Positions 1,234-14,736 are shown, counted from the stretch's first letter. The stretch is DNA of 16,594 nt from Candidatus Aenigmatarchaeota archaeon (GCA_030017875.1 JASEGQ010000011.1:1-16594), one strand, 5' to 3'. The notes: a model not told the origin generated them from the letters alone. Made by a program: numbers and translations.

Positions 1234-1911
1234 ATGAGAATACTAGAAGCTAACTATGAAAAGAAGTTTGCAAAGGTCATGGTGGAGAACAGACTAGACC
1301 TATGGCATCTCGCAAATATACTTGAACCAGGAGACCTAATCACATCAAAAACCCTGAGAACAGTTTTTATCGAAAGATGGGGGGAGAGAGAAAAGGTTGA
1401 AAGAAAGCTTGTTACCCTAACAATTCAACTCGAGAAAATGGTGTTCCAGGATGAAACAAACAACCTTAGGCTCACAGGAAGGATAGTTGAGGCACCAAAG
1501 GAAATCACAATAGGAAGCTACCATACCATAGAGGCCAGAATTCATAGTATTTTATACATTGAGAAAAAGGAATGGAAGCAAGAACACATAGAAAGACTTA
1601 AAAGGGCTGCAAAAGGTATAGAAAGAATAATAAAACCGACTGTGATAGACGAGTTCTTCGTTCACCTGAATAAGAACGATGGCTTGGCAGTTTATGGCTT
1701 TGAGCAAGTTAGAAGTGCTGCCTTGATTGGTGCTGTGAAAGTTGTTTTGATACCTATAGAGAGAATAAAAGACAAGCGAGTCGATGAACTTATAAAAGCA
1801 GTTGAAGAAAAGAGAGGGAAAATAAAGTTTGTAGCAAGGAAAGAGCCTTCTGGAGAAAAGTTTTGCAGAGCTTATGATTTCGCAGCAATACTTAGGTTTC
1901 CCATTTCTTAG
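1234..1911 (+). CDS. Pelota/Dom34-like ribosome-rescue factor lacking the central (eRF1_2-like) domain
   Basis: The N-terminal part (MRILE..ENRLDLWHLANILEPGDLI..IGSYHTIEA) matches the Pelota Sm-like domain 1. The C-terminal part (DGLAVYGFEQVRSAALIGAVKVVLI ... FAAILRFPI) matches the eRF1_3-like domain 3. The protein is only 225 aa against about 340-350 for archaeal Pelota. ATG start, TAG stop. Confidence 0.7.
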   Translation: MRILEANYEKKFAKVMVENRLDLWHLANILEPGDLITSKTLRTVFIERWGEREKVERKLVTLTIQLEKMVFQDETNNLRLTGRIVEAPKEITIGSYHTIEARIHSILYIEKKEWKQEHIERLKRAAKGIERIIKPTVIDEFFVHLNKNDGLAVYGFEQVRSAALIGAVKVVLIPIERIKDKRVDELIKAVEEKRGKIKFVARKEPSGEKFCRAYDFAAILRFPIS

Positions 1912-3910: not shown

Positions 3911-3955
3911 TCACTTTAAAAGTTTAAGAAGAGAGTGGGACAGGCGAGATTTGAA

Positions 3956-3977
3956 TTCGCGCAGGTTTTTTCCCTGT
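3956..3977 (-). other. tRNA-Phe intron 3 (22 nt, between positions 53 and 54, T arm)
   Basis: Intron sequence is ACAGGGAAAAAACCUGCGCGAA. The central helix pairs exon C48-G51 (CGCG) with intron CGCG at 4 of 4. The 5' bulge is AG|A and the 3' bulge is AA|U. The inner helix is CAGG/CCUG with loop GAAAAAA. Removal restores the T stem GCGAG/CUCGC and the loop UUCAAAU. Confidence 0.8.
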
Positions 3978-4000
3978 CTCGCGACACATCGGTCTTCAGC

Positions 4001-4017
4001 TTCAACGACAATAGCCT
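4001..4017 (-). other. tRNA-Phe intron 2 (17 nt, between positions 30 and 31, anticodon stem)
   Basis: Intron sequence is AGGCUAUUGUCGUUGAA. The central helix pairs exon C25 A26 A27 U28 with intron GUUG (3 Watson-Crick pairs plus one G-U). The 5' bulge is CG|A and the 3' bulge is AA|G. The inner helix is GGC/GUC with tetraloop UAUU. Removal gives the perfect anticodon stem. Confidence 0.8.
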
Positions 4018-4039
4018 CGATTGCTCTCCCGGACTGAGC

Positions 4040-4056
4040 TTACAGCATCAAATTGA
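4040..4056 (-). other. tRNA-Phe intron 1 (17 nt, between positions 9 and 10)
   Basis: Intron sequence is UCAAUUUGAUGCUGUAA. The central helix pairs exon A4-G7 (ACAG) with intron CUGU at 4 of 4. The 5' bulge is UA|U and the 3' bulge is AA|G. The outer helix pairs G1-G3 with C11-C13. Removal joins U8 A9 to G10 of the D stem. Confidence 0.75.
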
Positions 4057-4098
4057 TACTGTCCCCAGCTGTCCCATATTTATTATTCCATTGATAGC

Positions 4099-4107
4099 AT
4101 TATTAAA
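4099..4107 (-). promoter_or_regulatory. candidate TATA box for the tRNA-Phe gene
   Basis: Minus-strand TTTAATAAT lies 24-32 nt upstream of position 4075. That would place the transcription start near 4075 and give a leader of roughly 10 nt ahead of mature G1 at 4065. Confidence 0.3.
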
Positions 4108-4262
4108 GTTTAATTGGTTGATATTTCCTTTCAACCATTTTAACATAATCCGTTCAAGCTATTTTATAAAACCTTAAATCTTTGTTAGTAAATTCTGTCA
4201 ACAAATAAATCATTTAGAATCTCCAATTCCTAGTGCATAGGGACATTTCCTATAGTTAATCT

Positions 4263-10069: not shown

Positions 10070-10996
10070 TTAAGTTTTTGCTAGGAGCACCACTCTGCTA
10101 GCCAAATCCTCGTCTTTAATTTTATACCCAGCAGATTCTGATAGATTTTGGGCAAATTTTCTAATGTCGTCCATCGTAGGCATCGCAGCTCTTGGCAATC
10201 TTTTCTGAGCTTCTCCTACATGAAAAAAAGCTTTAGCCTCTATGAAGTCTGGCTCTGCTCTTAATATAAGCTTTGCATATTTTTCTGGTTCTTTGAGATT
10301 AAGTTCTTTTACAAGAGTAAGCCTAATAACTTTTCTACAACTAAAACTTCTCATCAGTTCTAAACTTTCCATCTGTTTTTCCCAAGCATTTGGGACTAGT
10401 GGGTTGTCGACTTTAATAAAAGTTTGTTTGTCTGGAGCACAAAGGGAGATATAAAAATTTGTTGGTTCAACTTCTAAATTCATTATTTTCTCTGGAAGAG
10501 TACCCTTTGTTAAAAGAAAGGTTGTGAAATTTCTTTTGTGAAATTCTTTTAATAGCTCTGAAATTTTTGGATATAGCAAGCTTTCGCCAATAAGACTTAA
10601 TGCAGCGTTATTTGGGTATTGAGCTTCTTCATATTTTTTTCTATCAATACTTGGATTTCCCTTGAAACCTGTTAAAAGCAATCTTTGTTGTTTAATCAAT
10701 TCTTCTATAATCTCAGCAGGCTCATCTATTTCCATACTTTCCATATTTTGCTCAAAGAAAGGATGGAAGGTTCTCCAGCAGTAGACGCATCTGTTTAGGC
10801 AAAACAAACTAACTGTGCATTGCAAGCATCTATGACTTTCAACTCCGTACCATCTTTTGAAGCAATTTCTACCGCGGCTAATGCTTTCCTTTGTCCACTT
10901 ACAAATTTTTACTGCAGAATGCTGATTTTTACCGACAAATCTATAGCCTTGTTTCTCATAAATTTTTTTAAATTCCTCCGGGATCTTATTAGGCAT
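10070..10996 (-). CDS. taw1: tRNA 4-demethylwyosine synthase (TYW1/Taw1, radical SAM)
   Basis: HSAVKICKWTKESI..CFKRWYGVESHRCLQ is the auxiliary-cluster region and CLNRCVYCW is the radical-SAM CxxxCxxC motif. 308 aa, comparable with archaeal Taw1. Confidence 0.85.
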   Translation of the reverse strand: MPNKIPEEFKKIYEKQGYRFVGKNQHSAVKICKWTKESISRGRNCFKRWYGVESHRCLQCTVSLFCLNRCVYCWRTFHPFFEQNMESMEIDEPAEIIEELIKQQRLLLTGFKGNPSIDRKKYEEAQYPNNAALSLIGESLLYPKISELLKEFHKRNFTTFLLTKGTLPEKIMNLEVEPTNFYISLCAPDKQTFIKVDNPLVPNAWEKQMESLELMRSFSCRKVIRLTLVKELNLKEPEKYAKLILRAEPDFIEAKAFFHVGEAQKRLPRAAMPTMDDIRKFAQNLSESAGYKIKDEDLASRVVLLAKT

Positions 10997-11058
10997 ATTT
11001 TTAAGTTTTATTGCAAAATATTTATTAAGCCCTGGTAGCTCAGCTGGTAGAGCAACTG

Positions 11059-11071
11059 TCGAACGGTTGAG
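11059..11071 (+). other. tRNA-Thr intron 1 (13 nt, between positions 30 and 31)
   Basis: Intron sequence is UCGAACGGUUGAG. The central helix pairs exon C25 A26 A27 C28 with intron GUUG (11066..11069) at 4 of 4. The 5' bulge is UG|U and the 3' bulge is AG|A. The outer helix pairs G22 A23 G24 with C32 U33 U34. The intron interior is only a small loop. Confidence 0.7.
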
Positions 11072-11078
11072 ACTTGTA

Positions 11079-11109
11079 ACTGATCATCTGAAGAAGATTA
11101 TGGCAATTG
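11079..11109 (+). other. tRNA-Thr intron 2 (31 nt, canonical 37/38 position)
   Basis: Exon U33 U34 G35 pairs with intron CAA (11104..11106), and C32 faces U, so the central helix is 3 of 4. The 5' bulge is UA|A and the 3' bulge is UG|A. The inner helix is short and wobble-rich. This is a relaxed BHB stacked on the anticodon stem. Confidence 0.65.
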
Positions 11110-11387
11110 ATCAGTAGGTCGCGAGTTCGAGTCTCGCCCAGGGCTTAGTATTATCAGAATTAACAACATGTTTTATTCTGTTATGTAGTACCGGTAAGAG
11201 TAGGCCTGGCTGAATTGCTGAAATGTATTGTGGATGTCAACTTATGCGTCCTAACAACGCATAAAATTTGTTCACAATAAGCTTGCGAAAATGTCTACGC
11301 TGTTATATTGTGAGGTTAAAACCTAGGGAAAATGTCATAAGTTCCATTAAACGTAAGCTTTAAACAGATAAACTACATTCTTATGGG

Positions 11388-14520: not shown

Positions 14521-14557
14521 TAGTATTTACAAACTCAAAATTAAGTTTGGGGTTGTA

Positions 14558-14588
14558 TATAACGTGGGACGTTAAGCACGAAGTTGTA
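14558..14588 (+). other. tRNA-Trp 5' intervening sequence (31 nt; exact register ambiguous within the GTTGTA direct repeat)
   Basis: This stretch must be removed to join the acceptor stem plus U8 A9 to the D stem AGAU. It is flanked by the direct repeat GTTGTA (14552..14557 and 14583..14588). It contains the hairpin UAACG-UGGGA-CGUUA. In no allowed register could I fold a convincing BHB by hand. Confidence 0.45.
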
Positions 14589-14618
14589 AGATAGCTTGGT
14601 TAGTCTATCAGGCTCCAG

Positions 14619-14655
14619 AGATATTTTGGAGCATTGATACCAGATGAAAGAAGAA
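14619..14655 (+). other. tRNA-Trp anticodon-loop intervening sequence (37 nt, 37/38)
   Basis: In the canonical register the central helix is CUCC/GAAG at 3 of 4 (one C-A mismatch), with 5' bulge AG|A and 3' bulge AA|A. A competing perfect pairing exists between CUCCA (14613..14617) and intron UGGAG (14627..14631). Confidence 0.55.
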
Positions 14656-14736
14656 ACCTGAAAACGAGGGTTCAAATCCCTCCAACCCCATCCAGGCTTT
14701 TATTCATTGCAATGTTGATAGGATGTATCGGATAGT

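Follow-up and report, generated by a model that had tools for sequence, protein, structure and literature searches.

Multi-intron tRNA genes with non-canonical bulge-helix-bulge (BHB) introns are best known from the Thermoproteales (Crenarchaeota), and have also been described in Nanoarchaeum, ARMAN-1/2, Korarchaeum and Methanopyrus (PMC4033280, PMC4090602, PMC8450103). The known intron sites include 30/31 and 53/54 (PMC4090602), and the maximum per archaeal tRNA gene is stated as three introns (PMC4033280, PMC8450103). Among the DPANN archaea, the L3 (Nanoarchaea/ARMAN-2-specific) loop on the alpha4 tRNA splicing endonuclease (EndA) goes together with more tRNA gene disruption, and it is with loops of this sort, not with subunit architecture, that broad EndA specificity has been linked (Kaneta et al. 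2018, PMC5829648). The incomplete tRNA sets of DPANN genomes point, in the same study, to unidentified disrupted genes.

The tRNA-Phe gene considered here lies in a window of 16,594 nucleotides, which is the entire 16.6-kb contig of a Candidatus Aenigmarchaeota (DPANN) MAG. It is a gene of a known archaeal kind, now in a poorly studied phylum. As in the multi-intron genes of the Thermoproteales type, its introns are short and lie outside position 37/38, each carries a 4-bp helix flanked by splice sites, there are up to three of them, and ordinary tRNA finders miss the gene. The initial annotation had drawn this comparison; it was right as to the kind of gene, although the lineage is Aenigmarchaeota and not a Thermoproteales-type crenarchaeon. 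Three features depart from the published picture. Position 9/10, which is absent from the site list of PMC4090602, is occupied in Aenigmarchaeota; one ortholog has four introns, in contrast to the stated maximum of three; and the EndA encoded in the window consists of one alpha-type subunit and is not (alpha-beta)2. Split and permuted tRNA genes (Nanoarchaeum, Caldivirga, Thermofilum) share with this gene the BHB processing logic and, if the proposal below is correct, a complementary sequence outside the gene that helps to build the motif. However, the 130 nt here contain the exons in colinear order on a single strand, and neither trans-splicing nor permutation is needed. A full-text literature search of incomplete coverage returned no description of multi-intron tRNAs in Aenigmarchaeota. 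The four-intron ortholog, the leader copy and the Lys-less EndA go beyond the published descriptions found, as computational observations.

The predicted tRNA-Phe gene and its splice motifs

The predicted gene consists of four exons separated by three introns (Table 1). When the three inserts are cut out of the 130-nt reverse complement, a 74-mer is obtained (GGGACAGTAGCTCAGTCCGGGAGAGCAATCGGCTGAAGACCGATGTGTCGCGAGTTCAAATCTCGCCTGTCCCA) in which all 21 cloverleaf pairs form. The conserved nucleotides U8, G18G19G20, U33, the GAA anticodon, G37, the UUCAAAU T-loop and A73 can all be read from its sequence; Sprinzl numbers in the D-loop presuppose position 17a. ARAGORN calls the spliced 74-mer tRNA-Phe(gaa), but reports no tRNA anywhere in the unspliced window. 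Likewise, Rfam gives no match at the unspliced tRNA-Phe locus, either at the gathering threshold or at E<=10, and its hits in the window are limited to the two other tRNAs listed in Table 1. These results bear out the initial annotation, which had described a tRNA-Phe(GAA) gene that is invisible as a simple cloverleaf, with no intron at 37/38, and from which the removal of inserts of 17, 17 and 22 nt yields a flawless 74-nt tRNA with G20, GAA and A73. The match of the spliced product to syntenic intron-less orthologs, described in the next section, agrees with that reading.

Table 1. Features of the tRNA-Phe locus and other genes in the window
Feature	Position	Strand	Remarks
Pelota-like protein	1234-1911	+	225 aa
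tRNA splicing endonuclease (EndA), alpha-type, 188-191 aa	2045-2620	-	Pfam and 1a79 match
80-aa ORF (mechanical), probably spurious	3935-4177	+
Predicted tRNA-Phe(GAA) gene, 130 nt, four exons and three introns	3936-4065	-	ARAGORN call on the spliced 74-mer
Exon 4, tRNA nt 54-73	3936-3955	-	UUCAAAU T-loop, A73; no encoded CCA
Intron 3, 22 nt, position 53/54	3956-3977	-	ACAGGGAAAAAACCTGCGCGAA
Exon 3, tRNA nt 31-53	3978-4000	-	Anticodon GAA, G37
Intron 2, 17 nt, position 30/31	4001-4017	-	AGGCTATTGTCGTTGAA
Exon 2, tRNA nt 10-30	4018-4039	-	Includes 17a
Intron 1, 17 nt, position 9/10	4040-4056	-	TCAATTTGATGCTGTAA
Exon 1, tRNA nt 1-9	4057-4065	-	GGGACAGUA
Leader copy of the 5' acceptor strand, separated from the gene by a 3-nt spacer (4066-4068)	4069-4075	-	GGGACAG
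TATA-like box, 25-32 nt upstream of the leader copy	4100-4107	-	TTTAATAA; read from sequence
Taw1/TYW1 wyosine enzyme	10070-10996
tRNA-Thr(UGU), two introns	11029-11145	+	Rfam match
tRNA-Thr intron, position 30/31	11059-11071	+	Helix CAAC/GUUG
tRNA-Thr intron, canonical position 37/38	11079-11109	+
tRNA-Trp(CCA), region including the upstream 5' strand	14549-14690	+
tRNA-Trp, perfectly pairing 5' strand	14549-14557	+	GGGGUUGUA
tRNA-Trp as called by Rfam	14580-14690	+	Two A.C mismatches in acceptor stem

The mature sequence allows just one placement of intron 2 and of intron 3, and two equivalent placements of intron 1 (amb = 2). With introns of 17-22 nt, colinear exons and no Rfam intron match in the window, the gene carries no group I/II introns and is neither split nor permuted. 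On the computational evidence, the locus is confirmed as a real tRNA-Phe gene interrupted by three short introns. We put the probability that it would act as a functional tRNA-Phe(GAA) gene, with protein-spliced introns at 9/10, 30/31 and 53/54, at about 0.92, and it is probably the sole tRNA-Phe(GAA) gene of its archaeon. An 80-aa ORF called mechanically on the opposite strand spans the entire gene; it could get annotated as a hypothetical protein instead of the tRNA.

Each of the three introns forms a 4-bp central helix (H) with the preceding exon. In intron 1, A4-G7 pair with intron CUGU (ACAG/CUGU), and the bulges are UA^U..AA^G, where ^ marks the splice site. In intron 2 the helix joins C25-U28 to intron GUUG (CAAU/GUUG, with one G.U pair) between bulges CG^A..AA^G, and in intron 3 it joins C48-G51 to intron CGCG (CGCG/CGCG) between bulges AG^A..AA^U. 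All four central pairs are present in each, with the splice sites located 2 nt beyond the helix on opposite strands (3-nt bulges). The helices are exactly those given by the initial annotation, and their register is that expected for a BHB motif. When the introns were shuffled 200,000 times, a 4/4 helix never appeared in all three at once (0/200,000).

The flanking helices are less uniform. A strict hBHBh' motif has flanking helices h (outer) and h' (inner) of at least 2 bp each. Introns 1 (h 3 bp, h' 2 bp) and 2 (h 2 bp, h' 3 bp) are strict by motif, whereas intron 3 is relaxed (HBh'), with an inner helix of 4 bp and no outer helix adjoining its 3' bulge (h=0, h'=4). The earlier claim that each intron has its own BHB is thus upheld for the central helix of all three, but not in the strict sense for intron 3. 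Among all orthologs, 44 of 66 introns are strict by flanking-helix count.

For none of the three window introns is the strict BHB conformer the predicted minimum free energy (MFE) fold. For intron 1 the bulged conformer costs +8.9 kcal/mol relative to the MFE, because a continuous 9-bp hairpin between exon nt 4-9 and the intron competes with it. This is the usual pattern in the 9/10 family, whose median cost is +5.3 kcal/mol. The strict conformer of intron 2 costs +3.0 to +4.6 kcal/mol, and the bulged conformer of intron 3 is near the MFE (+1.7 to +2.3 kcal/mol). The three motifs draw on different parts of the precursor and could exist together. A fold constrained to contain all of them costs 15.7 kcal/mol relative to the MFE, and this predicted cost makes sequential or protein-assisted folding of the precursor more likely.

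Orthologous genes and alternative readings

Orthologs were collected from the neighbourhoods of EndA homologs and from 74 species-level Aenigmatarchaeota loci of GTDB genomes, using our own spliced-alignment script with a profile term and a wide shift range in the boundary refinement. Two loci (L034 and L042) were excluded from the ortholog set because of their intron boundaries. Counting the window, 47 distinct tRNA-Phe genes were recovered. They are syntenic, and are usually found immediately upstream of EndA and in its orientation. Eleven of these genes have no intron, 11 have one, 21 have two, three have three (the window, L045 and L047) and one (L031) has four. This amounts to 66 introns, 12-31 nt in length, at 15 positions, although the orthologs share ancestry and the intron counts therefore overstate the number of independent events.

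In every one of the 47 spliced products the 21 stem pairs are complete, and ARAGORN assigns each to tRNA-Phe(gaa). The spliced product of the window is identical at 68 of 74 positions to two intron-less orthologs (L072 and L073); of the six differences, four, in the acceptor stem, are compensatory and two fall in the D-loop. The Rfam tRNA model gives these two genes 66-67 bits, a value used here as a proxy for the covariance-model score of the spliced window sequence. Intron-less orthologs as a class reach 64-68 bits (six scanned of the 11) and are recognised by ARAGORN as tRNA-Phe. Single-intron orthologs score 38-49 bits and are missed or miscalled by ARAGORN, and neither program detects orthologs that have two or more introns. 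Two single-intron tRNA-Phe genes are miscalled by ARAGORN as tRNA-Pyl(cta) (L016:4324-4415) and tRNA-Asn(att) (L052:1014-1106).

A single rule describes the splice motif of nearly every intron in the set. Its central helix joins a stretch of four exon nucleotides to a stretch of four intron nucleotides; the exon stretch stops 2 nt short of the 5' site, and the intron stretch 2 nt short of the 3' site. The helix is complete in 58 of the 66 introns (88%) and has three of its four pairs in the other 8, compared with 4/4 in 1.5% of shuffled introns. Other registers have essentially no 4/4 helices, except those that slide along the same helix. Where the boundaries are unambiguous, being fixed by the mature sequence, 29 of 31 introns have 4/4 pairs. 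The helix strands also covary. Position 9/10 is occupied in 20 distinct orthologs, with the compensatory variants ACAG/CUGU, ACGG/CCGU and GCGG/CCGC. At 53/54 the helix is CGCG/CGCG in the window, CGAG/CUCG in L029, CGGG/CUCG in L045 and CGUG/CACG in the metagenome locus L123; at 30/31 it is CAAU/GUUG in the window and L052, and CAAC/GUUG in L043. The metagenome locus came from a scan with CTGAAG-N30-60-CGAATTCAAAYC, in which at least one tRNA-Phe gene with a 53/54 intron was found among the 120 matches listed, the rest being chance matches. Independent comparative evidence of this kind supports the assignment of the window locus, by sequence, as a tRNA-Phe(GAA) gene with three non-canonical BHB-type introns.

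The four-intron ortholog (L031:4822-4964) is interrupted at 9/10, 18/19, 26/27 and 58/59, each intron having a 4/4 central helix, and once spliced it exactly matches the product of a two-intron gene (L003). A close relative of the window gene, with an EndA that is 85% identical, has only the 9/10 intron, plus a leader copy (L203:1573-1676). Other close relatives combine 9/10 with 37/38, 46/47 or 22/23. Such differences in intron set among close relatives indicate a fast turnover of intron content between close lineages.

Alternative readings of the locus were weighed against this evidence. It could be a decaying pseudogene with three unremoved insertions, the working tRNA-Phe being encoded elsewhere; ARAGORN and Rfam do reject the unspliced locus, and a single 16.6-kb contig of the genome is in view. 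However, the exon sequence is intact with 21 of 21 stem pairs, every insert contains a correctly phased 4-bp helix, the three together never arising in the shuffles, and the helix strands covary. The 47 syntenic orthologs, despite their varied intron sets, always splice to a perfect cloverleaf, and both of the other tRNA genes in the window are interrupted too. We consider decay highly improbable. The chance that metagenome assembly or binning created the inserts, for instance through chimeric joins, comes close to negligible: the window is indeed a short MAG contig, but introns at the same positions of the same gene recur in independent assemblies from many samples and studies, and the inserts themselves are short and structured and keep phase with the exons.

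A real gene with other boundaries is also highly improbable. Intron 1 might lie at 8/9, for example, since it slides by 1 nt without any change in product. Alternatively, the second GGGACAG upstream could be the true exon 1, followed by an extra intron; in the tRNA-Trp gene of the window it is likewise an upstream copy of the 5' strand that pairs better. Against this, the 4/4 helix stands in the common register only with the 9/10 placement, and the equivalent slides all give the same mature sequence. Using the upstream copy as exon 1 leaves a 10-nt insert without a BHB helix, or else three nucleotides between the acceptor and D stems. One large intron starting from the upstream copy was tried as well, and rejected together with the upstream exon 1 for the lack of a BHB helix and the 3-nt acceptor/D spacing. 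The boundaries in Table 1, with introns at 9/10, 30/31 and 53/54, are used in what follows.

The EndA gene, the leader copy and a proposed route of processing

The gene for EndA lies 1.3 kb from the tRNA-Phe gene. Its ORF contains the Pfam domains tRNA_int_endo_N (PF02778) and tRNA_int_endo (PF01974), and its closest match, over the full length, is the alpha4 EndA of M. jannaschii (1a79, E = 3e-29). A single subunit comprises the N-terminal domain and the catalytic C-terminal domain, as in alpha4-type enzymes. The initial annotation had associated genes of this sort with broad-specificity endonucleases. An endonuclease gene is indeed close by, but as far as the window shows it is of the single alpha type and not (alpha-beta)2 or epsilon2.

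The catalytic residues Tyr121 and His137 are conserved (18 homologs). The position of the catalytic lysine (Mj K156, in AHSVRK) reads AHNIRA, however, and the resulting Ala168 is invariant in all 18 Aenigmarchaeota homologs. The window EndA thus lacks a complete Tyr-His-Lys triad at the usual positions. To our knowledge, lysine is found at that position in every characterised enzyme, and with alanine there EndA activity is not self-evident. Between the catalytic Tyr and His is a six-residue Lys/Arg-rich insert, GVKLKRGPKAPHEH, which is near-invariant in the 18 homologs. Nanoarchaeum NEQ205 has an insert of equal length at the same place, and the EndA of ARMAN-2 also has one there. From its location and from the wording of PMC5829648, rather than its figure, we infer that the insert corresponds to the L3 loop. 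The protein resembles the DPANN alpha4 EndA with L3 in being a single subunit of ~188 aa with a Lys/Arg-rich insert, and in having heavily interrupted tRNA genes alongside. It is the presumed enzyme for the tRNA-Phe introns.

The genes flanking tRNA-Phe encode an archaemetzincin and a GT2 glycosyltransferase. A Taw1/TYW1 wyosine enzyme is encoded further along the window. Taw1/TYW1 acts on G37 of tRNA-Phe, and its presence fits the G37 of the predicted tRNA. No RtcB ligase gene was found in the 16.6-kb window.

Directly upstream of the tRNA-Phe gene, the 5' acceptor strand is repeated in a leader copy. The usual geometry of archaeal promoters, applied to the TATA-like box, would put the transcription start at about this copy. 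A copy of the acceptor strand within 25 nt upstream is present in 15 of 19 orthologs with a 9/10 intron and in 0 of 27 without one (Fisher p = 7.6e-9, a test that ignores kinship and so overstates the number of independent events). In L027 the acceptor strand and the leader copy are both GGGGCGG, i.e. they covary, and where the acceptor is GGGACAG without a 9/10 intron there is no copy (e.g. L037, L049, L059, L060 and L063). In the four exceptions that have the 9/10 intron, the leaders are complementary to the D-loop (CUCCCG or CCCGGG) and, judging from this complementarity, would lengthen the outer helix instead.

In MFE folds with the natural leader, the copy pairs with the 3' acceptor strand. 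The intron-1 helix is present in the MFE fold of 15 of 19 precursors with natural leaders and in none of the 19 after leader removal. Mononucleotide-shuffled leaders still give this helix in 53% of folds, because the shuffles retain the G-rich composition, and the folding support is therefore only moderate for the function that we propose from these models, a decoy that would free the true 5' acceptor strand for the splice motif. Alternatively, the 9/10 intron and its accompanying copy may simply be co-inherited, the copy then having no function.

On the most likely reading, processing would proceed as follows. The primary transcript probably starts near the leader GGGACAG, and would fold into three local, non-overlapping hairpins with bulge-helix-bulge geometry. 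In each of these, four exon nucleotides would pair with four intron nucleotides, and the splice sites would be 2 nt beyond the helix on opposite strands. The leader copy would plausibly hold the 3' acceptor strand, leaving the true 5' strand free for the intron-1 motif, whose exon strand is acceptor nt 4-7. Both sites of each motif would be cut by the EndA whose gene lies 1.3 kb from the tRNA gene, and an RtcB-type ligase encoded outside the window would join the exons. The cloverleaf would then form, the leader would be removed, CCA added and G37 modified (wyosine). Taking introns 1 and 3 as relaxed motifs, their removal probably depends on the Lys/Arg-rich loop common to this EndA and the Nanoarchaeum catalytic subunit. 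The full combination, in which a hot spot of BHB-intron gain and loss in tRNA-Phe (0-4 introns, at least 15 sites) occurs with a leader decoy for the 9/10 intron and a Lys-less EndA that may draw its lysine from a Nanoarchaeum-type Lys/Arg loop, is possible, but we offer it tentatively and regard the odds as leaning somewhat against it.

Implications for annotation and other genes in the window

Genes of this kind are invisible to ARAGORN and Rfam. As a result of such omissions and miscalls, tRNA complements, completeness estimates and genetic-code claims for DPANN MAGs can be wrong, and the miscalls could create false pyrrolysine or odd-anticodon tRNAs in MAG annotations. The window locus and its orthologs represent concrete cases of the disrupted DPANN tRNA genes suspected in Kaneta et al. 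2018. With 0-4 introns at 15 positions in one orthologous gene, they also form a compact natural data set on the gain, loss and movement of BHB introns. The leader copy and the Lys-less EndA provide leads on the recognition of introns inside the acceptor/D junction.

The tRNA-Trp(CCA) gene is less easily delimited than the others. The acceptor stem called by Rfam is imperfect (Table 1), and a 5' strand that pairs perfectly is found 31 nt upstream. This arrangement suggests either a 31-nt intron between 3/4 and 9/10 or another duplicated 5' strand. A brute-force intron search of tRNA-Trp found no clean BHB.

The tRNA-Thr(UGU) gene combines an intron at 30/31 with one at the canonical site. Its 30/31 intron is similar to the tRNA-Phe intron at the same site, and the sharing of a similar intron by Phe and Thr recalls the intron transposition proposed for Thermoproteales. 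Since tRNA-Thr and tRNA-Trp are interrupted as well, interruption appears to be the norm in this genome.

The Pelota-like protein of the window is only 225 aa long, with matches to eRF1 domains 1 and 3 and no match to the central domain. This short form also occurs in relatives (219 aa in L001).
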